Source: Eubacteriales bacterium
GTDB lineage: Bacteria; Bacillota; Clostridia; Oscillospirales; Acutalibacteraceae
Assembly: GCA_030533225.1 (NCBI GenBank)
Contig: JAUNJO010000001.1
Span: 34,402 to 98,401 of the forward strand
Direction of reading: 5' to 3'
DNA length: 64,000 nucleotides
Below the pieces are notes generated by a model, which was not told the origin of the DNA, did not search any database, and saw nothing but the letters and a program-made list of their open reading frames with translations. Shown here in pieces: positions 33,952-58,291 of the stretch. Made by a program: the position numbers and the translations under genes. The stretch's first letter is position 1; each line of letters begins with the position of its first letter.

Positions 33952-34075
33952 AAAAAAAGTGCCATTCACCCAAATAGGTAAATGACACTGTGAAAACTCT
34001 GATAACTGTGTTCGGTACACGACCAAACTCTGATACTAACACAATTATTATAGCAGATTGTTTCCCAATAGTCAA
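33952..34075 (-). promoter_or_regulatory. Conserved leader copy 1: promoter, hairpin flanked by TATCAGA repeats, terminator
   Basis: TTGACT-17-TGnTATAAT (34075-34047); 60 bp identical to copy 2; terminator stem + T7. Confidence 0.85.
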
Positions 34076-34111
34076 TCTTTTCGCAAAAGAAAGGAGCTTA
34101 ATGCCTTCAAA

Positions 34112-34231
34112 TCAGCGTTTCTTTGGCTCTCTGTTCGCCACTCTCGTGTTATTGATCATAATAACACAGGCAATGAAAAAGCCGATAGCACCGCCTACAA
34201 CGACACCACCGGCGAAGATTAACCAACCCAT
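34112..34231 (-). CDS. 39-aa membrane peptide (DUF3789-like), absent from the ORF track
   Basis: MGWLIFAGGVVVGGAIGFFIACVIMINNTRVANREPKKR; RBS AGGAGG. Confidence 0.7.
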   Translation of the reverse strand: MGWLIFAGGVVVGGAIGFFIACVIMINNTRVANREPKKR

Positions 34232-34326
34232 AGCATACCTCCTTATTTATGATATAGAGAAAGGACGCTGCACGAGGCAACGTCCTTGTGTTAACTTATA
34301 TTAGAACCTTACAGACTGGAGTTTGT

Positions 34327-34557
34327 TTATTTCTTTTTTATCGTTTGAGGAATTATCGCAAGTACCGCACCTACTACGAAAGAAACAATTACTTTAACAA
34401 AGGCATTATGTCTTATACTTTCAATAAAATATTCCATAGGTTCAGCAGCAAGTTTGATTCTAAATTGGGGCAAAAAACACATTAGCAAATATGCCGCTAT
34501 AAACCCTAAACAAAACAAAATGATTGATAACCATATCTTCTTATTCATACAAACCAA
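34327..34557 (-). CDS. Small two-TM hypothetical protein
   Basis: Two hydrophobic segments; AT-rich patch. Confidence 0.55.
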   Translation of the reverse strand: MVCMNKKIWLSIILFCLGFIAAYLLMCFLPQFRIKLAAEPMEYFIESIRHNAFVKVIVSFVVGAVLAIIPQTIKKK

Positions 34558-34774
34558 CTCCCATACAGACTTCTAATTTACTTGATTCATTCATACTGTG
34601 AATGCGATATAATCAGCCATATCAAACCAAAATCACTCGCATATGGCTGACTATAAGACTACACAGACACATCATCTATACTAATAACATTACGAAGATG
34701 CCGCTATATTCAGTCGTCAGCAAATAGATATCTCCAATTGCAAATCTTCTCCTTGTTAAATTAGCAGTGGTTGA

Positions 34775-35617
34775 TCAGATATTAAGCAATTTTGCAACTT
34801 CTTCTACCGTATCGAGAACGATATGGAAGTCCAACTCGCCGATATATTTGTTTTCTGCAACGTAGTTATTCCACAGCAGGACCATTTGAGGTTCTTCACG
34901 AATGTCCTTCAGGATATCTTTCCAGTCGTTCATATCCTGAACCGAGTCACGCTTTTGTGCCGTATGTAAAACAGCAGCTTTCAAAACATCAGGGCGAACT
35001 TCATTTTGACGGCTACGGTAAAGGGTGTGCAGATCGTAATAATCTCTGGCTCTTGTGGTACCGATATTACGGCGAATAATCGTCTCGTATTTCTCGGCAA
35101 GGATAGTTTCCAGGGTATATGCCATAACGGGAACCGACTTTTCATCAAACAGCATCGGGAAGTCATACTGAATCGCCGCCGGAGTAATAACGTCACCGGT
35201 GGTAACGTCTATTTTCATCGGGCTATCGATTTTGCCGTATTTTGCACGAAGGTGGACGCGGAAGTTATTGTATGCATCATCCTCGCGGATCGGCTCGATG
35301 CTTTGATATTCAAATACGATACCGTCGTTTACATCTACAGCCAAAATCTCTTGGATGGCCTTAACGATTTCATCTTCTTCCATCTGAATACCGCGCACGG
35401 TAGTATCCATATCCATCGTTGTACGCTCACCAATTCCAATCATGGAAGAGATCAGCAGACCGCCCTTGAGAATGAAATTATTCTTATAAGCAGAGTTTGC
35501 CAAACGTTCCAATACACGCTCAAAGAGAAACATTTGCAGAATTTCTTGAGCACGAAGGTTTTTCTTCGCTGCCATACTGCGTATAGTTCCTTTTAATTGC
35601 TCCGGTGTTTTCATCAC
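34775..35617 (-). CDS. abiEii: AbiEii nucleotidyltransferase toxin (type IV TA)
   Basis: FILKGGLL, RTTMDMD, IDVTTGD, EKYETI, RARDYYD. Confidence 0.92.
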   Translation of the reverse strand: MMKTPEQLKGTIRSMAAKKNLRAQEILQMFLFERVLERLANSAYKNNFILKGGLLISSMIGIGERTTMDMDTTVRGIQMEEDEIVKAIQEILAVDVNDGIVFEYQSIEPIREDDAYNNFRVHLRAKYGKIDSPMKIDVTTGDVITPAAIQYDFPMLFDEKSVPVMAYTLETILAEKYETIIRRNIGTTRARDYYDLHTLYRSRQNEVRPDVLKAAVLHTAQKRDSVQDMNDWKDILKDIREEPQMVLLWNNYVAENKYIGELDFHIVLDTVEEVAKLLNI

Positions 35618-36210
35618 AATACCTCCATATAGGTTCTGATTTTATCTTCGATCCCGAAAACCTTTCCGTACTTCAAAAGCTTTCGGTTGTTTGGTTTTGA
35701 TTTGAAATAATCTTTAATTGCCTGAGAGTATAGTTGCAAGTCAATCTGATTCTTATCCCGAATCAAATCGCAAATACAACGCTCTCTATCATACAAGCGC
35801 ACTGTTGCGCCTTGAGGAGAGGTTGTTTCTGTAATTCCCAATTCATAGATCTCCGGCTGAACATAGTGACAGCGGAGATTGGGATTATCTCTCTTTAATC
35901 GGCTGATGTTTTTTCCCTGTGGCACGGTGACGTCGAAGGTGTGGGGTGTTCGATCTGACAGTCCCCATAAGTATAATGCTGTGCCATAAGAAAAGACAAC
36001 CTTGTCATACTGTATTTGAATCATCGCAAATTCATCGGCAAGATCATCCGCAAGCACATAAAGACCTTTACGGATTTGAGCAAGCTTGCCGCTTTCCATA
36101 TATTTGCGAAGCATTGGTCTGCTGATTCCTGCAGCTTCTACAGCGCTTGTTTTTATTAAGCCATTATTTTCATTTGCGATCCTTTGAATTTCATTCCAAA
36201 TGCTATCCAT
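35614..36210 (-). CDS. abiEi: AbiEi antitoxin / transcriptional repressor
   Basis: N-terminal wHTH, IRKGLY, SYGTALYLWGL, YDRERCICDL; overlaps the toxin start. Confidence 0.9.
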   Translation of the reverse strand: MDSIWNEIQRIANENNGLIKTSAVEAAGISRPMLRKYMESGKLAQIRKGLYVLADDLADEFAMIQIQYDKVVFSYGTALYLWGLSDRTPHTFDVTVPQGKNISRLKRDNPNLRCHYVQPEIYELGITETTSPQGATVRLYDRERCICDLIRDKNQIDLQLYSQAIKDYFKSKPNNRKLLKYGKVFGIEDKIRTYMEVL

Positions 36211-36230
36211 GAGAACACACCTCCAAAAGC

Positions 36231-36279
36231 ATTTACATTCTTGCTTTACATTATACATTATTAAAGCACGAATGTAAAT
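36231..36279. promoter_or_regulatory. 18-bp inverted repeat, probable AbiEi operator
   Basis: ATTTACATTCTTGCTTTA (36231-48) vs TAAAGCACGAATGTAAAT (36262-79), 17/18 match. Confidence 0.75.
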
Positions 36280-36345
36280 AGTTTTTCTAAAATTTAGTGT
36301 GTCCTAATTGATACCTATTATTCACAAATAAAAAAACAGAGAAAA

Positions 36346-36672
36346 TTACTCGACATCTTCAGATGTCAGTTTGCCGGTTTTCTTATATCGAAGTCCTTCA
36401 GGAGAATCGAAAACTTCTTCTCCAAAAGTATAATCTCCATGATAGAATTTCGTAATATCCATTTCCAAAGCCTCGATTATACGACAAGCGAGTTCAAAAG
36501 AACTGGACATTATTCTGCGTTCTCCGCTTTCAAATTTTTGATATTGCTGTAAAACCACCTTGGCTCTATCTGCAACTTGCTTTTGCGTCAAGCCCAAGAT
36601 AACTCTTCTTTCTCTTAAAATATCACAGGGCTTAAAGTGTGCAATTTGAAATCCACTATAATCAAAATCCAT
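36346..36672 (-). CDS. XRE-family HTH regulator with its own promoter
   Basis: LRERRVILGLTQKQVADRA...QKFESGER; TTGACA-17-TAATAT and palindrome TACATTCA-AC-TGAATGTA upstream. Confidence 0.88.
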   Translation of the reverse strand: MDFDYSGFQIAHFKPCDILRERRVILGLTQKQVADRAKVVLQQYQKFESGERRIMSSSFELACRIIEALEMDITKFYHGDYTFGEEVFDSPEGLRYKKTGKLTSEDVE

Positions 36673-36784
36673 GTTCTTTTCTCCTTACATTCAGTTGAAT
36701 GTATTTATATTACACCCAATTGAGTGCATTGTCAATAGTTTTTTGAAAATCCATGAAAAAAGGGTGTCACCGAAGTGACACCCT

Positions 36785-38382
36785 CAGACTGTAGACAAAG
36801 TCCCGAAAGGGGCTTTGTTTTTTGCAAAAAAAATGAAAAAAGAGGTAAAGTATGGTATAATTAAGATATAAAAGAGGTGCCGGAAATGCTGAATAAAAGT
36901 GAAGAAAAACGAAATCAAATACAAATGTTTTGTATAGAGGATTTAGTACCGAAAGACCATTTATTAAGGAAAATAGAAAGAGCAATAGATTGGAGCTTTA
37001 TCTATGAATTGGTTGAGGATAAATACAGCTTAGACAACGGCAGACCGAGCATAAACCCGGTTACACTCATAAAAATACCGATTATACAATATTTGTACGG
37101 AATAAAAAGTATGAGGCAAACCATAAAGGAAATAGAAGTAAATGTCGCATACCGTTGGTTCTTAGGATTGGATTTAACAGATAAAGTGCCACATTTCTCA
37201 ACTTTCGGAAAAAACTATGTACGCAGATTTAAAGATACAGATATATTTGAACAGATATTCAGCCGAATACTTGAAGAATGTATAAAGCACGGGTTGGTAA
37301 AACCCAAAGAAGTATTTGTAGATGCAACACATGTAAAAGCGTGTGCCAACAACAAAAAGGTTACAACTGAAATTGTAAAGCAGGAAGCAATGTTTTATGA
37401 AGAACAATTAGAGAAAGAAATTAATTTTGACCGAGCCAATCATGGTAAAAAGCCTCTTAAAGATAAGAAGTATGACGACGATGACAATAACAATAACAGT
37501 GGTTCTTCATCGGGCGGGAACTTTAAAGAGGAAAAATGCAGCACAAGCGACCCGGAGAGCGGTTGGTTTCATAAAGGCGAGCATAAACAGGTATTTGCAT
37601 ATTCAATAGAAACCGCCTGTGACAAACATGGTTGGATATTAGGATACACTGTAAACAGGGGAAATCTTCACGACAGCAGAACATTTAAAGGACTCTATGA
37701 CAAGATAAAAAATCCTGAGATAGAAACAATAATAGCGGACGCAGGATACAAAACACCGGCAATAGCAAAGCTTTTAATAGACGATGGAATAGAACCATTA
37801 TTTCCATACAAGCGACCACAGACTAAAGACGGCTTTTTCAAAAAATATGATTATGTATATGATGAATACTTTGACTGTTATATATGTCCGAATAACAAAA
37901 TCTTAAATTACTCAACAACAAACCGAGAGGGATACCGAGAATACAAGAGTTGTCCACAGGACTGTGAAAAATGTCCGTATTTATCTCAGTGTACAGAAAG
38001 CCAAAACCATGTAAAAGTAGTTACGCAACATATCTGGGAAAATTACCTTGAAATATGCGAAGATATTCGGCACACAAAGGGAAACAAAGAACTTTATAGT
38101 AAAAGAAAAGAAACCATAGAACGACTTTTTGGCACAGCCAAAGAGCATCACGGCTTCAGATATACGCAAATGGTAGGCAAGGCTAAAATGGAAATGAAGG
38201 TCGGGCTTACTTTTGCATGCCTAAATCTTAAAAAGTTAGCAAAAATACTGGATAGAAAACAGGGATATACTGACTTTTCACGAGATTTATTTGATGTTTT
38301 ATTAAATTTTCTTTATTTCAATTCACAAAAAGAAAAAAGCAGATTTTCTGTTGCTTAGAAAATCTGCTTTGTCTACAGACTG
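36785..38382 (+). mobile_element. IS1182-family insertion sequence with 16-bp terminal IRs and 24-bp target duplication
   Basis: IRL CAGACTGTAGACAAAG, IRR CTTTGTCTACAGACTG; DR AGGGTGTCACCGAAGTGACACCCT at 36761-36784 and 38383-38406. Confidence 0.92.
36877..38358 (+). CDS. tnp: IS1182-family DDE transposase
   Basis: DLVPKDHLLRKI, GRPSINP, FVDATHVKA, ADAGY, RKETIERLFG. Confidence 0.95.
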   Translation: MPEMLNKSEEKRNQIQMFCIEDLVPKDHLLRKIERAIDWSFIYELVEDKYSLDNGRPSINPVTLIKIPIIQYLYGIKSMRQTIKEIEVNVAYRWFLGLDLTDKVPHFSTFGKNYVRRFKDTDIFEQIFSRILEECIKHGLVKPKEVFVDATHVKACANNKKVTTEIVKQEAMFYEEQLEKEINFDRANHGKKPLKDKKYDDDDNNNNSGSSSGGNFKEEKCSTSDPESGWFHKGEHKQVFAYSIETACDKHGWILGYTVNRGNLHDSRTFKGLYDKIKNPEIETIIADAGYKTPAIAKLLIDDGIEPLFPYKRPQTKDGFFKKYDYVYDEYFDCYICPNNKILNYSTTNREGYREYKSCPQDCEKCPYLSQCTESQNHVKVVTQHIWENYLEICEDIRHTKGNKELYSKRKETIERLFGTAKEHHGFRYTQMVGKAKMEMKVGLTFACLNLKKLAKILDRKQGYTDFSRDLFDVLLNFLYFNSQKEKSRFSVA

Positions 38383-38440
38383 AGGGTGTCACCGAAGTGA
38401 CACCCTCATAAACGGATACTATGAGCTATTCGCTCTTAGG

Positions 38441-38881
38441 TTAAGCCTCTTCATCTTCGGCATCCATAAATTCCGTGTATGTTTCCGGAGGATCTCCGTA
38501 AAGCATAACGATATCGTTGAAATCAGCATCCCAAGAAGACAAATAACATTCTGCTTCTACGACATCGGGGTGCTTGGTTGCTTCCAGATAGGCTTTTTTT
38601 ATGTCATCATTGACCGGTTCAGAGAAGGACCAAAGCTGCGAAAAGCCTTTAATAAAGGCAATTTTTGCACTGCCAAAGCCGAAGTTCTCCTTATGTTCCA
38701 TTTTAACGTGACCGTCTTCATCAAAAACAGGTTTACCCTCAGCATCACGAACGATGATCCACTTTTCAGTTCTACCGCAGCGACAGCAGTGACGGTATTC
38801 CTCTTGGGTACGGCAGTTAAAATCCGTTGTATACATACCCTTACATTGCGGGCATTCAATAATATCTTGTACGCTACTCAT
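38441..38881 (-). CDS. Hypothetical protein with CxxC/CxxC zinc ribbon
   Basis: CPQC...CCRC; last gene of operon 2. Confidence 0.7.
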   Translation of the reverse strand: MSSVQDIIECPQCKGMYTTDFNCRTQEEYRHCCRCGRTEKWIIVRDAEGKPVFDEDGHVKMEHKENFGFGSAKIAFIKGFSQLWSFSEPVNDDIKKAYLEATKHPDVVEAECYLSSWDADFNDIVMLYGDPPETYTEFMDAEDEEA

Positions 38882-38899
38882 TTGTAAACGCTCCTTTCT

Positions 38900-39832
38900 T
38901 TATACGGCAGCACGGAGGCTCCATAGCCCACGTCCGTCGTGATTGAAATGTTCAGGATTACACTGAAGAGTCTGGCGGATTTTTTCTTTCCACCATTTGT
39001 TTGCCTGAGCCTTTTTGTGTGGTTCTATCTGTTCATAAAGATACGTGAGGGAGACAGCTCCGTCACATTCTTCGAGAACAGCAGCAACGACATCGCGCCA
39101 AGTTGCCCCTGGCATATCACGGATATCCATCGTCTTTTGACTGCACATAAGCACAGGGATTGCCATCGGCGAATCCTTGCGTACAATCAGCACGTACTCA
39201 TGCAGAATCGGGATAAATGACCCGGAATATTGGGTGTTGTCCGAAAAGCAATTGTGTTGCGCCTTAATGATGATGTTTTCCATGGTACCGGGCTTGACGA
39301 TTTCGGCAATCATACTATAAAGCTTGCCTTTCTTTTTGATGTCGCCCATAAGCACAGCCATTCTTCCGCCTTTTTCCAAAGCTGAAAACTGCTTCATCAT
39401 CGCGTAGTTCATCGCCTGAACAAAGCGTTCCCAGTCTGGGATGCGGGACAGATCAAGTAGCATCGGATCGTAGCCGTATTTATTCTTCACGTCAGCGGCT
39501 TTGTACATCACATCTGAATACTTGATGATATCCCAGTATGGTGGATGCCAGAAAATGAATTCCGGCCTTTCCTGGATATCGCAGTTCATAATGTCAAAAC
39601 CACTGTGAAGGTCATAGATCCGGCTCTGGATGCCGAGCTTGTCTGCAGCTGCCTTAGTGGTGCCACTACCACACATATAGTCGCAGATCTCTTGGGGCTT
39701 AAAGAACCCAATTAGATCCTCAATCAACTTTGGAGAGCAGTTACCACGGTAACGGTTGTTGCCACCGGCACCGCGTTCCGGATAGGACACGATGCTGGTA
39801 AGCGGTCTTGATAATTCATTTTTGTAAGCCAT
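38900..39832 (-). CDS. Orphan amino-DNA methyltransferase with C-terminal HTH
   Basis: DYMCGSGTT (motif I), FWHPPY (motif IV), C-terminal TWRDVVAAVL...KIRQTLQ domain. Confidence 0.82.
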   Translation of the reverse strand: MAYKNELSRPLTSIVSYPERGAGGNNRYRGNCSPKLIEDLIGFFKPQEICDYMCGSGTTKAAADKLGIQSRIYDLHSGFDIMNCDIQERPEFIFWHPPYWDIIKYSDVMYKAADVKNKYGYDPMLLDLSRIPDWERFVQAMNYAMMKQFSALEKGGRMAVLMGDIKKKGKLYSMIAEIVKPGTMENIIIKAQHNCFSDNTQYSGSFIPILHEYVLIVRKDSPMAIPVLMCSQKTMDIRDMPGATWRDVVAAVLEECDGAVSLTYLYEQIEPHKKAQANKWWKEKIRQTLQCNPEHFNHDGRGLWSLRAAV

Positions 39833-40732
39833 TTAATCACCTCCAACTTGCTTTTTGTCGGAGGATTTGGCTTCGGTATGCGTATTTTGAGCAATATACT
39901 CATTTACGACCGTATGCGCCACCTCAGAAACGGATTCCCAATAGCTTTCCCAATAGCCGTCGTTCATTCCGAGTGCTTTATGAATGCGTTCCGGAATGCT
40001 TTTGTCGGCAATGAGTGCTTTGTACTGTTCATCCGTTAAGGCGCCAACACTATCCCAACCTTCAATCTGGTTCACAAAGTCCTCAGTGCGACTCAAATCA
40101 ATGAATTCGCGGCCGAGTGTTCCGTAAACTGAGTTTGGGAGAAGAAGCGACATCTTGGTAATGGCCACACTGTAATGACTGGAAGAATGCCATCCGTCGA
40201 GCCATCCTTCATAGGAATCAGCATCGGTATCAACCTGATATTCGTTGCTATCCATCCAGTCTGCCAGGCACCCGTTTTTCATTTCATTCTCAAGCTTTGC
40301 GTTCAATTTGGCCTTTGCCTCATAATAATCCGCATACACTTCGGTGGAATGACCGTAATCATCGTTTGCCGCCCAGTCTTCCTCAAGAATATAGATTTCT
40401 AAGGTCTTTCGGGGACTTTTCAGCACGAGGATCTCTTCGGGAGCCATAATGACATAATCCAGTGTAATATCGTCCAGCTTCTTTTCGGTTCCATAGAGAG
40501 CAGAAAAGCGTCTCTCGACGTCTTCGATATCACTCGGAAGACAAGGCGGATCGAAATAACAGTGGATATCCGGAGTTTCATTTTCCGTTTCTCTGTCATC
40601 GTCGGTTCTTATCTCCAGAATGAAACCGTTTAAGCCTCGATAATCACTTGCTGCAGTGCCGACGACTTCAGCACCGACACGGTACGTAACACCTTCATAG
40701 ATAAATTCCTGTCCAACAACGTTATAAACCAT
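39833..40732 (-). CDS. Hypothetical ICE protein
   Basis: Coupled in operon with RBS; no family recognised. Confidence 0.75.
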   Translation of the reverse strand: MVYNVVGQEFIYEGVTYRVGAEVVGTAASDYRGLNGFILEIRTDDDRETENETPDIHCYFDPPCLPSDIEDVERRFSALYGTEKKLDDITLDYVIMAPEEILVLKSPRKTLEIYILEEDWAANDDYGHSTEVYADYYEAKAKLNAKLENEMKNGCLADWMDSNEYQVDTDADSYEGWLDGWHSSSHYSVAITKMSLLLPNSVYGTLGREFIDLSRTEDFVNQIEGWDSVGALTDEQYKALIADKSIPERIHKALGMNDGYWESYWESVSEVAHTVVNEYIAQNTHTEAKSSDKKQVGGD

Positions 40733-40744
40733 ACCGACACCCCC

Positions 40745-41872
40745 TTAAATGTGATAATCGATGCCGACGAAGACCACGTCATCATCTGCGTCATCGATAA
40801 ACTCATCAACGGTGCGGCGCCATCCTTCGATGGTAATCAATTTCCTATTCACTAAATCAAAATCTTCGAATTCAGACTTGGAACGGTATTCTTCCTCGTG
40901 GAAGAGGTCGTGTACGCTGATTGGATACTTCCATTCATCCGGGATACCATACTCGTGCAGGTACTCCTCTAAGGTCTGTCCTTGACGATAAACGAGCTCA
41001 CCATAGGATAAAACGCCCTTATCGGTAATACTGCAGTATTTTTCCTCAGTTTCGCCGGCTTGGAACATTGCTTCAAGCTTATGGAATCTTTCTGTAGCTT
41101 TTTGATTACGCCAACGGCGCATCTCATCCCACTGGATATCTTTTTTTCGAGCACAGGCAACCCATCGATAGTCTTCCGGCGCCGGATACTCGTCATCGGT
41201 GAAAAGACCTCTTTCGCCGAAAGAATATTCGGTGCAATCCGTTTTAACAAGGAACATCGCCGGCCAACGTCCGCCAATGCTATACCAGTCATATACGCCG
41301 TCAGGATTATACCATTCGCCGTACTTGCCGGTTTCCTCGTTTCGGACCGCATAACATTCCTGTTCAAGATAGTCTTCAAACGATTTGTACATTTTCCTGC
41401 GCGGATAATCAGGAAGGACCTTCATCTTCTTTGCTCGTTTGGAGCGTTTGGGATGATGAAGCGGACCGAAATCTTTTTGATATACCAGTCCGTCCTTTAC
41501 GATGAATCTGCCCCAAAGCGGACGGGAGTTTTCCTCAACGATACGTCCATCGGGAAGTCTTACGCAGGTAACGTGCTTGTTATAATCGGCAAGGAATTCT
41601 TCTGTGCGATCCTCAAACACAAGATATCTCTTGTCTTCGGTACAACAGTTGAATCGCTCCATCTTTTCACGGATAACGGGGATCAACTCACGTCCAAAAG
41701 CCGTTCCGATGCTATTGAGCATTTCCGAACGAATTCTCGTCATCACGTTTTCGATGATTTTGCCGGGTTGTAAGGAGTGAATTTCCTCCTGAGCTTTTGC
41801 TATGTCTTGTTCCCATTCGGGATCCGGAGTAACTTCCGGAAGATATACAGTTAATAAAGATCTAAAATGCAT
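40745..41872 (-). CDS. Hypothetical protein with phage-type YNP..YDWYSIGGRW motif
   Basis: Motif YNPDGVYDWYSIGGRW; ATG 41872 after RBS AAAGGA. Confidence 0.7.
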   Translation of the reverse strand: MHFRSLLTVYLPEVTPDPEWEQDIAKAQEEIHSLQPGKIIENVMTRIRSEMLNSIGTAFGRELIPVIREKMERFNCCTEDKRYLVFEDRTEEFLADYNKHVTCVRLPDGRIVEENSRPLWGRFIVKDGLVYQKDFGPLHHPKRSKRAKKMKVLPDYPRRKMYKSFEDYLEQECYAVRNEETGKYGEWYNPDGVYDWYSIGGRWPAMFLVKTDCTEYSFGERGLFTDDEYPAPEDYRWVACARKKDIQWDEMRRWRNQKATERFHKLEAMFQAGETEEKYCSITDKGVLSYGELVYRQGQTLEEYLHEYGIPDEWKYPISVHDLFHEEEYRSKSEFEDFDLVNRKLITIEGWRRTVDEFIDDADDDVVFVGIDYHI

Positions 41873-47299: not shown

Positions 47300-47394
47300 A
47301 AGACACCTCCTTCAGAACGCAAAAAAGCGCACATGGTTCTCATTACAGAAACTCATGTGCGCCCTTAATACGCTCTATTCATTTGTTCGCTCCT

Positions 47395-47886
47395 TTAATT
47401 CTGATCATCAAAGAACGAATTGCCGCCAAAAGGTTCAAAGCCGGTGAAACCACCAGAGCCGTCGCCGGAATTAGCTGCAGGAGCTTGAGCAGGTGCCTGA
47501 TTGCTTGTGCCGTTCGTCGCATTGCCGTTGGAATTGGACTTTCCGCCGCCGGAAGCGTACTCAATCTCATCGAGAATGATAACTGTACAACTCTTCTTTT
47601 CGTGCGTGTTCTGGTCTTCCCAGACATCCTCGTCCAACCGGCCCTCAATGTTGATGAAAGAGCCTTCCTTCAGCTGCATCTTTTCGATACGATCGACGAT
47701 CGGGCCAAAGCCCTTTACGGAATAGTTGAGCCATCTTGCGTTGTTCTCAGCCTTCGGATCATAGACCTTCTTGCCGATGCGGAAACGTACCGATGCGGCA
47801 GAGTCATTACCTCTGGTGATACTGATGGCGGGTTTGTTGTCATATCCTCTGGAAATGACGACTTGGGTTGCGAATACCTTTAACAT
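47395..47886 (-). CDS. ssb: Single-stranded DNA-binding protein
   Basis: OB-fold (GSFINIEGRLDEDVW), G/N/Q linker, acidic-aromatic C-tail (FFDDQN). Confidence 0.85.
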   Translation of the reverse strand: MLKVFATQVVISRGYDNKPAISITRGNDSAASVRFRIGKKVYDPKAENNARWLNYSVKGFGPIVDRIEKMQLKEGSFINIEGRLDEDVWEDQNTHEKKSCTVIILDEIEYASGGGKSNSNGNATNGTSNQAPAQAPAANSGDGSGGFTGFEPFGGNSFFDDQN

Positions 47887-47967
47887 AGGTTACTCCTTTC
47901 TGCAGGGTTTGCCTGCAACAAAAATTTATATTTCAACCCACACTGTTGTGGGGCGAAACCGGGAAAT

Positions 47968-48093
47968 AAAAAAAGTGCCAATCAGCACATAAGTGCTAAC
48001 TGACACTGTGAAAACTCTGATAACTGTGTTCGGTACACGACCAAACTCTGATACTAACACGGTTATTATAGCAGATTATTTCCCAATAGTCAA
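47968..48093 (-). promoter_or_regulatory. Conserved leader copy 2
   Basis: TTGACT-17-TGnTATAAT (48093-48065); 15-bp terminator stem + T7; heads the ssb-AAA-VWA-MTase operon. Confidence 0.85.
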
Positions 48094-49723: not shown

Positions 49724-49856
49724 CGTACACACTCCTTTTTCAGCGAAAATAAAAAAGTGGATCCGGTTAAGGACCCACTTTTGGACGATACAATTATAGC
49801 ACATTCTCTTTTACTTGTCATCGGCAAAACTGTGCCAATTTCGTGCCAATTTGCTG

Positions 49857-50057
49857 TCATTTCATATGTATTAGATATTCACGCAAAGCATTTATATCCA
49901 TTTCGGATACCAGGGCGCGCGCATTCTCCCGGCGAGTAATATAATGGAGTTCGCCGGTGGATACATAGCCATATAACTGCTCATACGGATCATATCCAGC
50001 TTTTTTTAATGCGTTTACAGCAATTTCAATGTCTTTTTCAAATGTCTTCACGTCCAA
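49857..50057 (-). CDS. IreB/ReoM (DUF965)-like protein
   Basis: ALKKAGYDPYEQLYGYVSTGELHYITRRENAR matches the IreB pattern KGYNP..Q..GY..SGDP.YIT....AR. Confidence 0.7.
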   Translation of the reverse strand: MDVKTFEKDIEIAVNALKKAGYDPYEQLYGYVSTGELHYITRRENARALVSEMDINALREYLIHMK

Positions 50058-52355: not shown

Positions 52356-52470
52356 AATAGCCTCCTACGAGTTACAAACTTACGATACACCTACTCGTGA
52401 GTTTATTATACTCTTATGATAGCCAAAAGTCAATAGAATCAGTCAAAATCATAAAATTAATAACCAAAAA

Positions 52471-52505
52471 GAAAAAGCAGTATGGTTTTTTAGGCCATAC
52501 TGCTT
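52471..52505 (-). terminator. Terminator ending operon 3
   Basis: AGCAGTATGG/CCATACTGCT stem + T tract. Confidence 0.8.
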
Positions 52506-52514
52506 CTCTAAAAG

Positions 52515-53168
52515 TTAGAACATAGGAACCTCAGGTTCCGTGTAGTTCTGAGTTGACTGTGGCTGAGTGCCTGTGCTTCGATTCTGTTTCGGCTTTGCCA
52601 TATACTGCGCAGATAACCACGCCATATAATGTGCCTGCGTCAAAAGCAGAAGTTCGCTCAAGGTCTCAAATGCCATGCTGACAGCAACGTGATTTTCCGG
52701 TTTGCTACCAAACTTAGGCACGATAAGACCTTTTTCGGTAACGTCTCCGGGACCGCTGTCGGCTACGAACAGGATATCTGAACGGCTACCGACAATGATT
52801 TTCGCCACACGGGACAAGCTCCTGCCATCCGGTCTGGAGCGTCCTTGCTTAGCGAGCTTCTCTGCAGAAGTCCCGCCAAGGCATTCATAGAGTGGCGTCT
52901 GATCGTTGCTTTTCTTTTTGTTCTGCATCATATACCGAAGCTCACCGTAATTCAGTTTACGGCACAGCTCCAAAAATTCATCTGCAGCAATGTAAATATG
53001 GATGTTGTTCGTCTGTCTCTGCCCGGCAGGGCGGTTGAGGTCATAGGTTGCAAAGGCGAGATGGATTTTCCCAAACTCAAATGCATCGTATAAGCTCTCA
53101 ACGAAACAGTTCTTGGCATCCTTTCTGGAAATCTGATAATTATTACGTTCTTCAGCCATTTGCTTCAC
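52515..53168 (-). CDS. Hypothetical ICE protein
   Basis: Coupled to the upstream gene; no family recognised. Confidence 0.75.
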   Translation of the reverse strand: MKQMAEERNNYQISRKDAKNCFVESLYDAFEFGKIHLAFATYDLNRPAGQRQTNNIHIYIAADEFLELCRKLNYGELRYMMQNKKKSNDQTPLYECLGGTSAEKLAKQGRSRPDGRSLSRVAKIIVGSRSDILFVADSGPGDVTEKGLIVPKFGSKPENHVAVSMAFETLSELLLLTQAHYMAWLSAQYMAKPKQNRSTGTQPQSTQNYTEPEVPMF

Positions 53169-53880
53169 CTCCGTGTATCGGCAGATCGTTCATCATCTTG
53201 ATCATCATATCCCGGTTCGCTATAAACTGCGGGAAGAAATCTTCCTCCAGGTTGTAATCCAAATACAGCTTCACGAAAATAATGTTGATAATTTGATTCA
53301 TGCTGTCCATTCGGATTTTCGTGATTGCCTTTTGGATAAGCGGACTGAGTATGGAGATCGTTTTATGCCACTGAATAAAATACTCATCCTGGACAGGAAT
53401 GTCAAACTGTGTCAGCCACTCTCTCACCGTATGCGTCTCGTTCTTGCCACAACGGGTAGGATGGGTAAACAGGTACTCGATATCCTTGACATTCATATCC
53501 TTAGGAGCTTTCACTGAGGTGTCAATGCAGATGGTTCTGCCAATCGGATACATAGCACATACTACCGGCTTACACTCGTGTACAACGCATTTGTTGTTTT
53601 CAAGCAACGGGCAATGACCGGCCGCATCATGAGGAACAATGCGAGCGATGGGCATATGCGAGGTATCTCCGAGATAAGTGTCGCAGTATCTCTTAATGAA
53701 ATCAAACGTAGAGATACCGAGCTTCTTGGAGATTCGGAACACATCCTTTGGGGTGCAAAGGATGTCCTCACGATTCATACAGCATTTGCCGCATTGATTG
53801 CAGCTAAACTGGAACGTGTCATCGATGCCAATCAGCATCTTTTCTTTCATTTGTAATATTCGATCTAATCTTGGATCCAT
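53152..53880 (-). CDS. YkgJ-family (CxxCxxCC) zinc/iron-chelating protein
   Basis: FSCNQCGKCC, CPLL...CVVHECKPVVCAMYP. Confidence 0.88.
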   Translation of the reverse strand: MDPRLDRILQMKEKMLIGIDDTFQFSCNQCGKCCMNREDILCTPKDVFRISKKLGISTFDFIKRYCDTYLGDTSHMPIARIVPHDAAGHCPLLENNKCVVHECKPVVCAMYPIGRTICIDTSVKAPKDMNVKDIEYLFTHPTRCGKNETHTVREWLTQFDIPVQDEYFIQWHKTISILSPLIQKAITKIRMDSMNQIINIIFVKLYLDYNLEEDFFPQFIANRDMMIKMMNDLPIHGGEANG

Positions 53881-53976
53881 AATAAATAATTCTCCTATTC
53901 TGAATGAAGGGGCACATTGCTGCACCCCTTCGGATTATGTCATACTGACTCTGATACTTTTGTGATTCCGTAGAGC

Positions 53977-54300
53977 TTACTTATCGAAATTTCTCCACGG
54001 AATCTTGTTATGGTTAAACTTGATGGGCTTAAATCCAATGCTGTCACAGAAGAAGGTTCCCAGACCTTCTGCCCAAACAACATCGGATACACTCATAGAA
54101 CGGCCACGATATCCGGCTGGATGCTCCATATTGAAGATATAGAAGATATCATCCAGTCGTTTAACGTCCAAATCGCCGTCAAACACAAGCTCATAGGTAC
54201 ACTCGCGAATACCACCATGCTTCACTGTGAACTCATAGTTCATATACATCAGGTTATAGCGGTCCTCCTCAGGTGCAATCTGGAACAGTTTTACTTTCAT
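53977..54300 (-). CDS. YodL-like domain protein
   Basis: YELVFDG, LDDIFYIFN..HPAGYRGRSMSVSDVV, FFCDSIGF. Confidence 0.85.
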   Translation of the reverse strand: MKVKLFQIAPEEDRYNLMYMNYEFTVKHGGIRECTYELVFDGDLDVKRLDDIFYIFNMEHPAGYRGRSMSVSDVVWAEGLGTFFCDSIGFKPIKFNHNKIPWRNFDK

Positions 54301-54733
54301 TCCGCCAGGCTCCTTTCATAAGATATCGGGTGTCCAGCATTTGAAAGACGTGCGGTGCTGTACAATTCTCATCCTCGGGGAAACGATTCTGTTTATCGGG
54401 AACGATGACACGCAAAACCTTGCGTCCACATTCCCAAAATTCAGACAATCGCACTGGGCAATCCTCATAGATACCCTCGACCATATCGCCATCCTTGAAT
54501 TGCTCTCCGGCCTGCACACGCAAGCCGAAGGTGTTCAGAATGCGACCGATTTCCTCGTTAGGATAATTCAGCACCAGCTGAAAGTCTGGATGATTGTATT
54601 TCCCCATGCCGTGCGTATGGCAGTTACAGAGATACGGCAAAAAACCGTTTTCGACCTCATCACAGCAAGCGCACTTCACACCGTTCATCACAAGATGGAT
54701 GACCCAATCGATTTTAGGCTTCACTGTAATCAC
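54269..54733 (-). CDS. DUF4262-like protein
   Basis: CHTHGMGKYNHPDFQLV; RVIVPDKQNRFP. Confidence 0.6.
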   Translation of the reverse strand: MITVKPKIDWVIHLVMNGVKCACCDEVENGFLPYLCNCHTHGMGKYNHPDFQLVLNYPNEEIGRILNTFGLRVQAGEQFKDGDMVEGIYEDCPVRLSEFWECGRKVLRVIVPDKQNRFPEDENCTAPHVFQMLDTRYLMKGAWRNESKTVPDCT

Positions 54734-55103
54734 CGTCCTTTACGTCAAGTAACCACAGATGTTCCTCATCCATATGTGTCGCACTCCATCTGCAATTCAG
54801 GTGCCTGCCTAATAGCAGTTCTGCTACGCCCATACCGATGCCGTTTACACTGAAATCCCATTCTGCAGACTCAGGGAGAGATTCTATTCGAGCAGCTTCA
54901 TCTGCACCGACAGTCTCCATCAGCTTATATAGTTCCGACAGAGGAAGTCTTCCATTGGACAGTTGAACCGCCCAATAGTCGTGGTCATCAATATTGGCCT
55001 TGCAGATAATCTCTCTGCCGAGGATCTTGCTGATCTCAATGCCGATGTGCTCAGAAACCTCCGCCCAAGGAAGTTTAACCGCCTTTACGTGCTCACTCAT
55101 CAT
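54714..55103 (-). CDS. Hypothetical protein
   Basis: Coupled in operon. Confidence 0.7.
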   Translation of the reverse strand: MMSEHVKAVKLPWAEVSEHIGIEISKILGREIICKANIDDHDYWAVQLSNGRLPLSELYKLMETVGADEAARIESLPESAEWDFSVNGIGMGVAELLLGRHLNCRWSATHMDEEHLWLLDVKDGDYSEA

Positions 55104-55491
55104 TCTTCACCTCCTGAGGCTCTATAGAACCTTTATCGGCAATATCAAGTAAGCTCTTGCTGGTCCATCCGACAACGGCAACCAAAAACTCCTCGATACT
55201 ATTGTGAAGAATGGCTCTCGCCATATGAAATCCCACAGACTCGATCTTTTCATCATCAGAAGCGATTTCGGCAAAGAAGGCATTCGCAAAAGCTTCCGCC
55301 TTTTTCTCATCGTTCATAACGTCAAGCAGACGTCTGCAGGTTTCCTCGTCTGCCAAGGGAAACGGATGTTTCGGCATATTATCCTGATTGGTTTTGGATT
55401 CGGCAAGCTTCTCGATTGCTCTTGTCAGCTTTGGCAGCTGATGCTCAAAGAAATTCTTGCCATACATTGTTTCGTGAAACTGTAATCCCAT
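55093..55491 (-). CDS. Hypothetical protein
   Basis: N-terminal FHETMYGKNFFEHQLPKL..AIEKL motif; coupled. Confidence 0.7.
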   Translation of the reverse strand: MGLQFHETMYGKNFFEHQLPKLTRAIEKLAESKTNQDNMPKHPFPLADEETCRRLLDVMNDEKKAEAFANAFFAEIASDDEKIESVGFHMARAILHNSIEEFLVAVVGWTSKSLLDIADKGSIEPQEVKNDE

Positions 55492-55493
55492 AA

Positions 55494-55994
55494 TTATTTC
55501 CTTTCTGCCACGTAGGACCCGTAATGAATTGTGTCATCCTCATCTGAACGGTACACGCCGATACATACCTCGTGACCTTCGCCACGCTCCGGATTGTGCT
55601 CTACAAAGCTTACCAGTTCCGGATCTTCTTTGGTTCCTTTATCCCAGTAGATATTAATCGCCGGGAAATTAGAGTCATCAATTGCCTTTGCACTGAGATG
55701 GGTTCCATCAGGCAATGGCAAAATAATACTCGGGTACCATTCGGGTGTGGAGTTTGTTTCAGGTGAGTCTGACAGAGAGAAACGCTGCTTACCGGTTTTA
55801 CCTGCAGCAAAGCGTTTCCTTGATTTGTCCAGCTCAGTCTGGAGCGCAGTATATATCTGCTCCACCTGACGCTGCGTGTAAGAATAGTTTGAGGAGCCGG
55901 ACAGATTACCAAGCAAGCGTACCATTTTGATAATCTTATTGACTCTGGCTTCCGCCAAACGCACAAAGCGTTCGTCCTTAGGCTCTCTGCTCAT
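55494..55994 (-). CDS. Hypothetical protein with RFVRLAEARVNK...LGNLS..SNY N-terminal domain
   Basis: Helical motif recalled from MGE proteins; function unknown. Confidence 0.7.
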   Translation of the reverse strand: MSREPKDERFVRLAEARVNKIIKMVRLLGNLSGSSNYSYTQRQVEQIYTALQTELDKSRKRFAAGKTGKQRFSLSDSPETNSTPEWYPSIILPLPDGTHLSAKAIDDSNFPAINIYWDKGTKEDPELVSFVEHNPERGEGHEVCIGVYRSDEDDTIHYGSYVAERK

Positions 55995-56209
55995 ACCGTC
56001 ACCGCCTTTGCAACAGACGTAAGATGTAGGAAGTAACGTGTATTTTGCGTCTCAAACCGAATGACGCTATCGGAAAGCCGTTTCATATTGATCACCGTAG
56101 TGGTTTGTCTGTAACCACCATCGCGCTCGATAATTACTGCAGGCTGTCCGATTGCAAGAGGAAGAATCATACTTCCGGCAATACAAAGTGTTTTCTTCTG
56201 CTGATTCAT
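55991..56209 (-). CDS. Small hypothetical protein
   Basis: RBS GGAGG; ATGA overlap. Confidence 0.7.
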   Translation of the reverse strand: MNQQKKTLCIAGSMILPLAIGQPAVIIERDGGYRQTTTVINMKRLSDSVIRFETQNTRYFLHLTSVAKAVTV

Positions 56210-56248
56210 TGTGTCTATCCTCCAATAAACAAAAATAGACGAAGCAAT

Positions 56249-56548
56249 TTAAGCTCCGTCTTGGTTGTGCTGCTCATCATATTGAGCCAGCATTGATTCA
56301 AATTCGTATCCCGGCACAATGCAAACTCCAAGGGTAAGTGCTTTTTCAAGCTTGATTCCCGGACGTTCGACGACAATAAGATAGTCGGTTCTGCTACTCA
56401 CATTGTATACAGGATGCGCCCCGCGTTCTTTTAGCATTGCCATGAGAACCTTACGGGTGTACTTGCGTAATTTGCCCGTCGCTGCAACCTTCTTCTGCAG
56501 AAACGGAAAGTTTTGATTCGCACTCACATTGTGCTTCTCCTTCCTCAT
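56249..56548 (-). CDS. Stand-alone BRCT domain (ligase C-terminal-like); start uncertain
   Basis: VAATGKLRKYTR....MLKERGA....NVSSRTDYLIV......KLEKA..LGV. Confidence 0.8.
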   Translation of the reverse strand: MRKEKHNVSANQNFPFLQKKVAATGKLRKYTRKVLMAMLKERGAHPVYNVSSRTDYLIVVERPGIKLEKALTLGVCIVPGYEFESMLAQYDEQHNQDGA

Positions 56549-56969
56549 CACCCTGTAGGATCCACGGGCGATGTGTTTTGTTGAACTCTTGATATCCAAC
56601 CCAGTCCTCATTGTCAAAAATGCGGCTCACGTGAAGCTGTAAAGCGTATTCCTCGCGTTCATTCCTGGAATGAAGCCAAGCACAGCTCTTCGCATAATCT
56701 ACAAGTCCCTCAAAAAGAGCCTGTTCACCGTCTCTTTCGATAATGAATCGGGCAAGTGCAAACCAATCCGCTTCCAGAATATCTCCGATTTCCGTCATAC
56801 AGCCGGTGCGGTAGATATATTTCTTATCTCGCCCTGTACCGCTAATATGAACCGCTTTTCCGGTTCCAAACCGAATGCGCAACTGTTTACAAGTTAGTTC
56901 CTGAATGTTATACCGTTCATCATCAATCACATAATAACCGGTCTGGCGGAAATCCTGAACCTTTAACAT
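56451..56969 (-). CDS. Hypothetical protein (3' end overlaps the BRCT gene)
   Basis: Coupled to the MTase-like gene; long C-terminal overlap makes the 3' boundary doubtful. Confidence 0.6.
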   Translation of the reverse strand: MLKVQDFRQTGYYVIDDERYNIQELTCKQLRIRFGTGKAVHISGTGRDKKYIYRTGCMTEIGDILEADWFALARFIIERDGEQALFEGLVDYAKSCAWLHSRNEREEYALQLHVSRIFDNEDWVGYQEFNKTHRPWILQGDEEGEAQCECESKLSVSAEEGCSDGQITQVHP

Positions 56970-56971
56970 TG

Positions 56972-57658
56972 TTACGTTCCTTTTTCAATCGGCTCTTCCA
57001 TAAAAGGAACTGCCGCGCAGGGAGTATACCACTGGGACCAGTTTTCCATCGTCAAGGTGTTTCCGTGAATGACAACTGCAGGGATCCCGTACAAGCTCAA
57101 CTGGATATATGCCATCCATACGCAGCGGATATCAATATCCTGCGCCACAAAGAAGCTTTTGCAGCGATAATCAATACCTTTGCGCTGCATTGCCCAAACT
57201 GCGCCGATAACCATCGTACCGGAACCGCAGGTAGGCTCGTTGATCGTGATGGGACCTTCTCTGTCCGTAGGCTCGTCAACCCCTATCATTTGGGCCATCA
57301 TCCTACAGATATGGTCGGGAGTGAAGAACTGACCGTTCCACTCGTTGTTGAGACGTAACTGATGATAGACGTCGCCGAGAATATCGCACGGATCTTCAGC
57401 GTGTTCTCGTGTGGCCAGTGTAAGCAAAGCAAACATTCTGGCATACGAAGACAGTACCTCCGGTGCCATCTTGGAAGCAATCTCCTGATATCGTTTTTCC
57501 CGTTCCTCGGCATTGGCAGGATCCATCTGGGCCGCAATGCTCGTTGCCGTGATCTCTAAAAACGTGGTAAACACCGTGTTGAGACCATTTGATTGGGCAA
57601 GACTTCGGATTTCATCAATCAGTTCGTCCTTGTAACTGCGTTTCTTTGCCATCGTCAC
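56972..57658 (-). CDS. Short N6-DNA-methylase-like protein (SAM-binding half only)
   Basis: GQFFTP, INEPTCGSG, QDID, HGNTL; ends without an NPPY/F motif. Confidence 0.8.
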   Translation of the reverse strand: MTMAKKRSYKDELIDEIRSLAQSNGLNTVFTTFLEITATSIAAQMDPANAEEREKRYQEIASKMAPEVLSSYARMFALLTLATREHAEDPCDILGDVYHQLRLNNEWNGQFFTPDHICRMMAQMIGVDEPTDREGPITINEPTCGSGTMVIGAVWAMQRKGIDYRCKSFFVAQDIDIRCVWMAYIQLSLYGIPAVVIHGNTLTMENWSQWYTPCAAVPFMEEPIEKGT

Positions 57659-57664
57659 ATCTCC

Positions 57665-57925
57665 TTAAAACGGGAGATCTTCATCCTGTGCATCATGCAT
57701 TCCTTCCACCGGTGCCTCTTCGTAATACCAGGCATAGTCTCTGATAAACTCTCTTACCTCAAAAAGGCAGAAAGCAATGAAAAGGCAAAGGAAAAAGATG
57801 TTGCTGACACACTCAAAGATGAGTCCGAGCTGAAAAGCAAGGTAGACGTTGGATATCCCAACAGGGATAATGATTGCCGCCATGACGAGCATAGCGATGG
57901 TTAAGATGAATGATAATTTTCTCAT
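57665..57925 (-). CDS. Small membrane protein, first gene of operon 3
   Basis: Two TMs; RBS AAAGGAG. Confidence 0.65.
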   Translation of the reverse strand: MRKLSFILTIAMLVMAAIIIPVGISNVYLAFQLGLIFECVSNIFFLCLFIAFCLFEVREFIRDYAWYYEEAPVEGMHDAQDEDLPF

Positions 57926-58025
57926 AGTGAGACACGCTCCTTTTCGTTTTGTTTATATAGTAACGGCAAGCCCTGAGGCTCCCCGAGAAAAAAGGTTGGG
58001 GGAACCTTTCGGCTCCGATCTATAT

Positions 58026-58100
58026 AAAAAAAGCACCCATCAAAAACACATACGTGCATTCAATGAGTGCTCTTGTAGCCAGTTATGGTGGCTCTGATAG
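58026..58100 (-). promoter_or_regulatory. Second, degenerate TATCAGAG-hairpin-terminator module in tandem with leader copy 3
   Basis: TATCAGAG-CC-accataact-GGCT-ACAAGAG then AGCACTCATT/GATGGGTGCT stem + T tract. Confidence 0.65.
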
Positions 58101-58172
58101 GTTGTAAAAAGAAGGGATAGCCCCTTCAGTTTCGGTATCTTGTGCTTCTTACTGGAAGAAAGCATAAGAAAT

Positions 58173-58291
58173 AAAAAAAGTGCCCAAAGATAAAATCTCG
58201 GGCACTGTGAAAACTCTGATAACTACTACTGCCATTAGGCAATATCTGATACTAACATATATATTATAACAATCTTACGCCTGATAGTCAA
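58173..58291 (-). promoter_or_regulatory. Conserved leader copy 3 (diverged)
   Basis: TTGACT-17-TGnTATAAT (58291-58263); shares 22-bp and 13-bp blocks with copies 1/2; different hairpin sequences. Confidence 0.85.

Follow-up and report, generated by a model that had tools for sequence, protein, structure and literature searches.

How is it decided whether the early operons of a mobile element in gut bacteria are transcribed? In Clostridia of gut and rumen, integrative elements mobilise genes for defence and anti-defence as well as cargo, and hardly anything is known about how their early genes are timed. We analysed a stretch of 64,000 nucleotides (nt), in the following called the window, from an Eubacteriales bacterium of the Acutalibacteraceae (assembly GCA_030533225.1, contig JAUNJO010000001.1, positions 34,402-98,401 of the forward strand). 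It contains a mobile element in which one compact and recognisable cassette, a leader composed of a promoter, a small hairpin and a terminator, heads all three early operons (ssb, recombination genes, MoxR-VWA, orphan methylases). Most likely, this leader decides whether the early genes of the element are transcribed at all. The leaders form a well-supported, uncatalogued cis-regulatory family, which is spread over several bacterial orders. All coordinates are window positions; the leaders and the operons headed by them are located on the minus strand.

Architecture and conservation of the leaders

An initial annotation of the window had listed three such elements on the minus strand. A renewed reading of the sequence confirmed their positions and the described succession of promoter, box, hairpin and terminator. 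The promoters of all three copies consist of the -35 hexamer TTGACT, a spacer of 17 base pairs (bp) and TGnTATAAT, and are the top-scoring promoter-like sites of their regions. They are followed by TGTTAGTATCAGA (34029-34041, 48047-48059 and 58245-58257, minus strand), a 7-bp hairpin (hairpin 1), AGTTATCAGAGTTTTCAC, and a long terminator, T1, which begins about 50 nt past the predicted transcription start in all copies. For AGTTATCAGAGTTTTCACAGTG, located 3' of hairpin 1, three exact matches were found, with 0 expected. As had been stated, copies 1 and 2 have exactly 60 bases in common; hairpin 1 is GTTTGGT/ACCGAAC in these two and TATTGCC/GGCAGTA in copy 3. T1 has the form AGTG...CACT plus a U-tract of 7 U; its stem sequence is unlike in each copy and its pairing always kept, with a folding energy of -24 to -30 kcal/mol (z -4.0 to -4.9). 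The whole genome of 1.79 Mb contains no leader copies beyond these three, and a full covariance model run with filters off gave no additional leader in the element. The parts of the leaders are as follows (RBS, ribosome binding site; ORF, open reading frame; aa, amino acids; T2 and T3, further terminators).

34047..34075, minus strand: promoter of leader 1; -35 TTGACT at 34070-34075, 17-bp spacer, TGC-TATAAT, -10 at 34047-34052
34029..34041, minus strand: box 1 of leader 1 (TGTTAGTATCAGA); family word AAGUWUCA, its AGU beginning 9 nt past the -10
34010..34028, minus strand: hairpin 1 of leader 1, GTTTGGT-CGTGT-ACCGAAC
33990..34009, minus strand: box 2 and linker of leader 1, ACAGTTATCAGAGTTTTCAC
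33951..33989, minus strand: T1 and U-tract of leader 1, stem-loop 33958-33989
33839..33950, minus strand: class-1 extension of leader 1; hairpin CCAATT/AATTGG, T2 at 33891-33920 with tail TTGTTATATAT, third hairpin, RBS
ATG 33838, minus strand: start codon of the 380-aa protein, first gene of operon 1
48065..48093, minus strand: promoter of leader 2, TTGACT-17-TGC-TATAAT
47967..48059, minus strand: common module of leader 2; box 1 48047-48059, hairpin 1 48028-48046, box 2 48008-48027, T1 47974-48007, U-tract
47887..47966, minus strand: class-2 extension of leader 2; GGTTTC-CCCACA/TGTGGG-TTGAAATA, hairpin GCAGG/CCTGC beside the RBS; ATG of ssb at 47886
58263..58291, minus strand: promoter of leader 3, TTGACT-17-TGT-TATAAT
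58172..58257, minus strand: common module of leader 3; box 1 58245-58257, hairpin 1 58227-58244 (TATTGCC-TAAT-GGCAGTA), box 2 58207-58226, T1 58179-58206, U-tract
57926..58171, minus strand: class-3 extension of leader 3; hairpin GCTTTCTT/AAGAAGC, T2 58111-58127, T3 58033-58070 with tail TTTTTTTATATAGAT, RBS; ATG of the first ORF at 57925

The leaders are thus multi-hairpin 5' untranslated regions of 110-250 nt with one to three tandem terminators. They are AT-rich (GC 0.26-0.42) and share a common module of about 90 nt, that is, a module of about 50 nt plus its own terminator. Behind T1, three classes can be distinguished. In class 1, which precedes the 380-aa protein, YqaJ and RecD2, the CCAATT/AATTGG hairpin comes first, then the second terminator, whose tail is UUGUUAUAUAU, and then another hairpin. 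Class 2, preceding ssb, shows GGUUUC-hairpin-GGGUUGAAAUAAAUA and, adjoining the RBS, a GCAGG/CCUGC hairpin. In class 3, the GCUUCUU/AAGAAGC hairpin is accompanied by two extra terminators. Among 26 copies, for which flanks and -10 register were compared, these class-specific parts are conserved down to the RBS. In all elements, a conserved tail, UUGUUAUAUAU or UUUUUUAUAUAGAU, comes after the last terminator of class 1 and class 3 leaders (33878-33890 and 58015-58032, minus strand).

For determining the distribution of the leader, a pattern scan over species-representative genomes was performed. It gave nine near-identical copies in metagenome-assembled genomes of the Oscillospirales type (Acutalibacteraceae, Ruminococcaceae, Oscillospiraceae, Ruminococcus), from which a covariance model, R1, was built. 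R1 detected divergent copies in 10 of 401 genomes sampled from the order. A second model, R2, found copies in 8 of 399 genomes sampled from the class, these being of other families; note that both totals count the host genome itself and that the class total also counts two genomes already detected at the order level. Altogether, these searches, which the initial annotation had suggested for Clostridia, added about 30 copies outside the host genome in the same order and class, and in many related elements a regulon-like set precedes orthologous operons. A typical element carries three co-oriented copies at distances of 7-10 kb, arranged as class 3, 2, 1. Two weak matches (L038 and L039) turned out to be plain terminators and were dropped as false positives. 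In the plasmid collection, blastn detected no similar DNA; in the phage collection, it detected one unannotated faecal fragment named 'Bacteriophage sp.'. Viral contigs contain two true members; the first belongs to a 'provirus' that is 15% complete, and the second is located at the end of its contig. Evidence of a phage identity of these members was not found.

The initial annotation could not assign a named RNA family, and the database searches agree with it. At the gathering threshold, a scan of the window with Rfam 15 gave only pemK and Gut-1, both away from the leaders. At E<=10, two noise matches off the leaders and no family resulted for the three leader loci. A description of the leader family was not found in the literature either.

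The initial annotation had further proposed selection on RNA structure. This selection is real. In an alignment of 33 copies to the covariance model, 95.0% of the paired cells are paired, compared to 72.1% in column shuffles (0 of 500 shuffles reach the value) and about 41-45% with slid partners; as the alignment was fitted to the model, these figures somewhat favour the structure. In hairpin 1, both partners vary at each of the 7 pairs, and about ten distinct stem sequences occur; its few breaks lie mostly at the loop-closing pair. In the terminator, the seven inner pairs covary and the six pairs of the foot (AGUGUC/GGCACU) are near-fixed in sequence, the U.G wobble of the foot being kept in 28 of the 33 copies. 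Wobble cells (96) by far outnumber mismatch cells (32), and therefore the fold belongs to the transcribed sense strand.

Besides the fold, three words are found family-wide: AAGUWUCA, ACAGUUWUC and ACAGUGUC, the last one being the 5' foot of the terminator. They are spaced about 30 and 18 nt apart, and the weighted consensus reads taTaA-GUaUCA, hairpin, AcAGu-UaUCaGagUUUucAcAGUGUC ... uGGCACUUUUUUU. Box 1 shows an identity of 0.70-0.82, boxes 2-3 one of 0.73-0.78, and the foot together with the U-tract one of 0.89, as against 0.45-0.52 for hairpin 1 and 0.24-0.44 for the top of the stem; the values are alike within and between elements. A variable hairpin between identical boxes, together with this equality, indicates selection on the words and not gene conversion. 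The AGU of box 1 begins 9 nt past the -10 hexamer in 22 of the 26 copies and 8 or 10 nt past it in the other four; the 17-bp spacer and the extended TG are present in nearly all of them. The loop of hairpin 1 is conserved neither in sequence nor in length (4-7 nt). One claim has to be narrowed: the twin UAUCAGA boxes, which had been regarded as fixed, are a trait of the subfamily in the window only. In relatives, box 2 reads UUUCCGUGG, UACCGUG, AUCCAAG, etc.; consequently, the exact twin box is not the family's conserved feature. Outside the leaders, TATCAGA has 6 minus-strand matches in the element (about 2.7 expected), which are not conserved in relatives.

These data bear on the possibility that a repressor encoded by the element binds the boxes, and maybe also the inverted repeat formed by hairpin 1, as an operator in double-stranded DNA. 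After the model of p576 (Reg576), expression would be transient after entry into a new cell, and the terminator would be a separate device. As in p576 (PMC6294495), direct heptamer-like repeats do occur beside strong sigma-A promoters which drive establishment-type genes. Box 1 overlaps with the transcription start, in a near-fixed -10 register, and the element contains HTH_3 and HTH_17 genes. However, hairpin 1 differs among the leaders of one element and is hence unreadable by one repressor, and most of the non-Watson-Crick cells are wobbles, which fits pairing of sense-strand RNA and not a DNA palindrome. Moreover, the words are much farther apart than the Reg576 operators (2 bp), the third one lies within the terminator, and the HTH_17/HTH_3 pair exists in only three of the six elements whose gene content was compared. 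The HTH_17 match itself, in a 71-aa protein present in these 3 of 6 elements, is below the threshold (21.3 bits, cut-off 27). The operator is thus disfavoured, and we regard it as scarcely probable.

Terminators behind the promoters and the proposed gate

No sigma-A-like promoter site was detected between T1 and the start codons; transcription thus has to enter the operons from the leader promoters or by upstream read-through. Two other promoter readings were rejected: the UUAUAUA tails contain no -10-like hexamer (TAnnnT) on either strand, and in a sigma-54 reading of TGGCAC-N5-TTG the -12 element is without its GC. The lack of a promoter-like site behind T1 weakens a proposal of the initial annotation, according to which the leaders are released as small RNAs (sRNAs) of about 90 nt. 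Such RNAs might base-pair with targets in trans, or might be a sponge which offers the repeated word to an RNA-binding protein. The combination of a strong promoter with a short structured RNA, a terminator predicted to be efficient and a word repeated in single-stranded stretches would suit this function, and the conserved terminator foot with its U-tail is reminiscent of sites recognised by RNA chaperones. But the operons rely on the same promoter, the parts behind T1 are conserved to the RBS as in a 5' untranslated region, and the unit is always located directly before, and co-oriented with, an operon. In addition, neither an antisense promoter nor an RNA complementary to the boxes was seen, a complement of the box sequence does not occur in the element, and the third word is hidden within the stem of T1. 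A function as sRNA is therefore distinctly unlikely.

T1 is not the only terminator which polymerase would encounter. Co-oriented internal terminators occur at conserved junctions in several elements, namely behind the ssb and primase-like genes and in front of the Zn-ribbon and sigma genes. A fourth unit, which the initial annotation had overlooked, is a trimmed gate at 49753-49821: it keeps the promoter, the GUAUC core of the family and the terminator foot AAGUG...CACUUUUUUAUUUUC. The gene behind it (ATG 49723) codes for a conserved, lysine-rich and membrane-anchored Zn-ribbon protein of 119 aa, and a terminator is found at the same junction in two relatives (G232 and G513).

49753..49821, minus strand: trimmed fourth gate; ATGACA-17-TGC-TATAAT, UUGUAUCGUCC, AAAAGUG-stem-CACUUUUUUAUUUUC; lacks hairpin 1 and box 2
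47327..47362, minus strand: very strong internal terminator right after ssb in operon 2, -18.5 kcal/mol; similar sequence after ssb in G355
26279..26303, minus strand: internal terminator after the primase-like (DUF3854) gene of operon 1; junction shared by G355 and G484
24224..24257, minus strand: terminator before the Orf7-like sigma-r4 gene; junction shared by G232, G484 and G513

No promoter-like site was found between the ssb terminator and the next 9 kb of operon 2.

Our preferred reading is a default-off gate, which requires factor-dependent and probably processive antitermination at the head of the early operons; we put its probability a little short of even. A near-consensus sigma-A promoter would fire at each leader. 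The first 50 nt or so of RNA would present the 5' word AAGUWUCA in its near-fixed -10 register, the hairpin as a clamp, ACAGUUWUC and ACAGUGUC. Without help, polymerase would stop at T1 and release an RNA of about 90 nt. A factor loaded on the 5' module would make polymerase resistant to the terminators of the leader and of the operon interior, and the operon would be expressed. The mode would be processive antitermination as known for lambda N/nut, HK022 put or Q/AlpA, and the factor could be encoded by the element or the host, or the RNA might act alone. From sequence, we infer efficient termination in vivo, conditional and processive read-through, and the role of the words as recognition site. 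The initial annotation had likewise assumed silenced promoters which need a read-through factor. The default-off state stands as the best reading; the leader does not end at the first terminator, as had been supposed, since further hairpins and terminators follow.

It is these additional terminators which argue for a processive mechanism rather than for local antitermination: two or three strong terminators in tandem are not passable by a switch acting on T1 alone. This speaks against a classical local attenuator, in which a ligand, a tRNA, a ribosome or a protein flips T1 between terminator and antiterminator, as in riboswitches or with HutP, TRAP and PyrR. Its hallmark, a small conserved 5' domain immediately before a terminator, is present, and since the third word belongs to the 5' arm of T1, a protein which binds all three could keep this arm open in a HutP-like manner. 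A conserved competing helix does not exist, though: the alignment fold without the 3' arm of T1 gives hairpin 1 only, and folds of single sequences offer no common partner for the 5' arm. There is no conserved leader peptide, either. Switching T1 only would pass neither T2/T3 in classes 1 and 3 nor the internal terminators, and the fourth gate does without hairpin 1 and box 2. We consider such an attenuator very unlikely.

More weight has to be given to a constitutive attenuator or insulator, although it is still unlikely. Here, a fixed and large share of transcripts would be stopped, giving low-level expression from a strong promoter and blocking read-through from upstream or from the host, with no dedicated factor; the words, in an equally unlikely explanation, would serve RNA stability, processing or promoter escape. 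Each leader is located directly behind the previous operon with no terminator in between, and thus T1 also ends the upstream unit. An insulating terminator has been documented in Tn916 (PMC11658703), and EGeRS1 of pLS20 blocks read-through (PMC8708921). RNA-library contigs spanning T1 exist as well: metatranscriptome contigs of 90-95% relatives extend from the leader via T1 into ssb, which is suggestive, these being assemblies, possibly of DNA, and without transcript ends; they also agree with the gate. On the other hand, two or three strong tandem terminators would leave almost nothing for 10-kb operons, whose genes are well conserved. Most of the gated proteins show 60-84% identity across elements, which implies that they are expressed at some time. 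Furthermore, insulation leaves unexplained the three fixed words, the covarying hairpin and the near-fixed -10 register, all of which are maintained across several orders.

Several observations weigh against the default-off gate. A trans factor was not found: protein scans gave no match of the Q, N, AlpA or ribbon-helix-helix (RHH) type, and searches with Pfam, PHROGs, NCBIfam and PDB sequences revealed no antiterminator, NusG/KOW or RNA-binding family among the conserved ORFs. The genome has no NusG paralog; its sole NusG gene is located outside the element on another contig (C41:11970-12278). For ten proteins encoded between 27434 and 53168, which are conserved in all or most of the six elements, Pfam, PHROGs and NCBIfam gave no match; among these are the 380-aa product of the first gene of operon 1 (65-76% identity) and a basic protein of 217 aa (61-69%). 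Termination efficiency and conditional read-through are predictions, and the metatranscriptome contigs stem from relatives, with the restrictions mentioned above. The loop of hairpin 1 is variable, unlike boxB, and no proven RNA antiterminator (put, EAR, conAn2, canT) is as small as this module of about 50 nt and one hairpin. The -10-like hexamer in box 1, described below, is a partial match only. Finally, the internal terminators could simply set differing expression levels for individual genes.

With respect to a partner of the gate, the only regulators present in five of the six elements are an Orf7-like sigma-r4 protein and an HTH_16 Orf8-like protein.

23652-24098, minus strand: Orf7-like sigma-r4 protein, 148 aa
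23468-23728, minus strand: HTH_16 Orf8-like protein, 86 aa

According to a PDB sequence search, the 148-aa protein is ECF/sigma-28-like; other PDB searches were uninformative. The pair is a candidate partner, its link to the leaders being speculation. The Zn-ribbon protein behind the fourth gate was rejected as a Q-like factor, as it is membrane-anchored and not Q-like.

Comparison with known antitermination and establishment systems

In its proposed function, the leader resembles known antitermination and establishment systems; it is a member of none, as defining features of each family that could be compared are missing. With the Q/AlpA cassettes (PR'-qut-tR', which gives 6S RNA, and PalpB-tB; features according to PMC9371919), it shares a strong promoter for the housekeeping sigma factor, an intrinsic terminator within about 100 nt, and a long operon with more terminators. 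Further similarities are a conserved element in near-fixed register past the -10 and, as predicted default product, a short terminated RNA. Box 1 contains a hexamer, nAGUwU, at about +3 to +8, whose A2 and T6, the two key positions of a -10, are invariant; the other invariant bases are not explained thereby. In contrast to Q/AlpA, there is no family-wide DNA element in the promoter spacer: TTGACTATTG occurs in the promoters of classes 1 and 2 only, class 3 differs, and the middle of the spacer varies. A Q or AlpA homolog was not detected in the element. Moreover, the leader has a covarying RNA hairpin under selection, which Q does not need, and the cassettes number three or four per element, where Q/AlpA systems have a single one.

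Similar to lambda N/nut and HK022 put, a short 5' RNA module, consisting of a single-stranded box and a hairpin, is repeated at the heads of the early operons of one mobile element and would let polymerase pass the terminators behind it. However, the words of the leader are unlike boxA, the loop is variable whereas N reads the loop of boxB, an N-like protein is missing, and the hosts are Clostridia. The leader also differs from put and EAR in having one hairpin, while these form two stem-loops or a large fold. The covarying hairpin favours recognition at the level of RNA (nut- or put-like), whereas the near-fixed register together with the nAGUwU hexamer favours promoter coupling (Q/AlpA-like).

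Mobile elements of Firmicutes use cis-acting RNA for carrying polymerase through the many terminators of long operons (PMC8191782, PMC11658703). The element studied here has, in addition, a Tn916-type integrase and an Orf7/Orf8-like pair. But conAn2 of pLS20 comprises at least about 300 nt with a GC-rich tract and SL1, and is located in single copy after the first gene, conAn1, where the conjugation operon begins. In comparison, the leader module of about 50 nt is positioned at +1 before the first gene, is AT-rich, exists in three copies and has its own terminator. The leaders lack the conAn2-type RNA feature; a sequence search for a homolog of ConAn1 was not made. The activity of canT of Tn916 resides in a 452-nt fragment near the end of the element, is needed for read-through of T1-T3 and is single-copy; the leader differs from it in size and copy number.

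A third group comprises the establishment regulons p576 EGeRS2/Reg576, pLS20 EGeRS1 and IncN CUP, in which one cassette is likewise repeated before establishment-type operons (ssb, orphan methylases). The strong sigma-A promoters with extended -10 are reminiscent of EGeRS2, the blocking of read-through of EGeRS1. Yet EGeRS2 has dual TTATCCC operators 2 bp apart and upstream of the -35, where an RHH repressor binds to DNA, whereas the words of the leader are transcribed and located downstream of the start; in Pfam scans, no RHH protein was seen. EGeRS1 is 420-750 bp long, GC-rich and without a promoter, in contrast to AT-rich leaders of 110-250 nt with a near-consensus promoter. A single-strand promoter of the Frpo type is not given either, as -35 and -10 are unpaired and located upstream of hairpin 1, not inside a hairpin. 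LoaP leaders, which belong to antibiotic and polysaccharide operons of Firmicutes, have the same layout as those described here: a promoter, a small leader hairpin, an intrinsic terminator and a long operon. However, LoaP needs a nearby NusG paralog, and this genome has none.

A more far-reaching idea is that mobile elements of Clostridia have a new processive antitermination system, which loads at the 50-nt module and acts as a regulon-wide switch of all early operons; we propose this tentatively and hold it to be doubtful. Equally doubtful is the specification that this site, with no relation to nut, put and qut, would stay far below conAn2 or canT in size and would have its partner among the ten family-less proteins, in the Orf7/Orf8-like pair, or in host polymerase alone. 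With a dedicated factor, the system would be a new type of antitermination with a very small RNA site, useful for biochemistry and as a genetic part. If no factor is needed, it would be a clear case of terminator-based insulation of a mobile element. In either case, metagenomes can be annotated for these elements and for their early regulons by means of the covariance model, and the motif can now be submitted to Rfam.

Operons behind the leaders and the mobile element

The operons headed by the leaders are dedicated to replication and recombination, to ssb-MoxR-VWA-methylase, and to a methylase plus cargo. Operon 1 has Pfam matches to YqaJ, DUF7768, RecD2, a DUF3854 primase-like protein and ParM; operon 2 to SSB, an AAA_5 ATPase, a VWA protein and an N6_N4 methylase; operon 3 to an N6 methylase, CxxCxxCC, DUF4262, an IreB paralog and others. 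Thus, of the gene labels given in the initial annotation, YqaJ, RecD2, SSB, AAA, VWA and the two methylases stand, and DUF932, SSAP, BRCT and YodL have no Pfam match. The IreB-family paralog (66 aa, 49857-50057, minus strand), which is located inside operon 3, is common only to G232.

The left end of the element is Tn916-like, with an HTH_3 gene, the Orf7-like sigma-r4 and HTH_16 Orf8-like genes, a pemK RNA, a DUF6462 protein and a Tn916-type tyrosine integrase (21324-22595), beyond which host genes follow. To the right of the gated operons, a sortase-pilus module (right of 61 kb) and a second recombinase of the Xer type are found, with no leader. Genes of a type IV secretion system (T4SS) are missing on the contig of the window; another contig of the same genome, C38, carries a VirD4-type gene and a possible VirB4-like gene, and no leader copy. 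The claim that every long operon of an integrative and conjugative element (ICE) is headed by a leader was thus too broad, given that the pilus module and the T4SS genes of C38 lack one. In G232, three serine recombinases stand at the end of the three-leader module; its neighbours are of the defence type, and a T4SS is missing. The label 'ICE' is hence provisional. The recombinase module is exchangeable: the Tn916-type integrase here and the three large serine recombinases in G232 (C1 173750-178700) are both located behind the sigma-r4/HTH_16 pair. The conserved unit consists of the three gated operons and this pair.

The pemK RNA (RF02913, 70.7 bits; 23158-23221, minus strand) is located between the HTH_16 gene and the 97-aa DUF6462 gene, just upstream of the integrase. 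Judged by this position, it is part of the regulatory and recombination module; it does not stand beside a pemK toxin gene. The Gut-1 match (RF01706, 50.8 bits, barely above threshold; 12083-12154, minus strand) lies outside the element, directly 3' of a 711-aa gene of the EF-G family.

Two further features were noticed near the end of operon 2. An insertion sequence with a DDE_Tnp_1_6 transposase (36877-38358, plus strand) has been inserted between the last gene of the operon and its terminator, GGGTGTCAC...GTGACACCC (36762-36783, minus strand), which marks the end of operon 2 in relatives. An AbiEii/AbiEi toxin-antitoxin pair (34775-36258, minus strand) with its own promoter (36278-36250) is located between operon 2 and leader 1 and is absent from the compared relatives.

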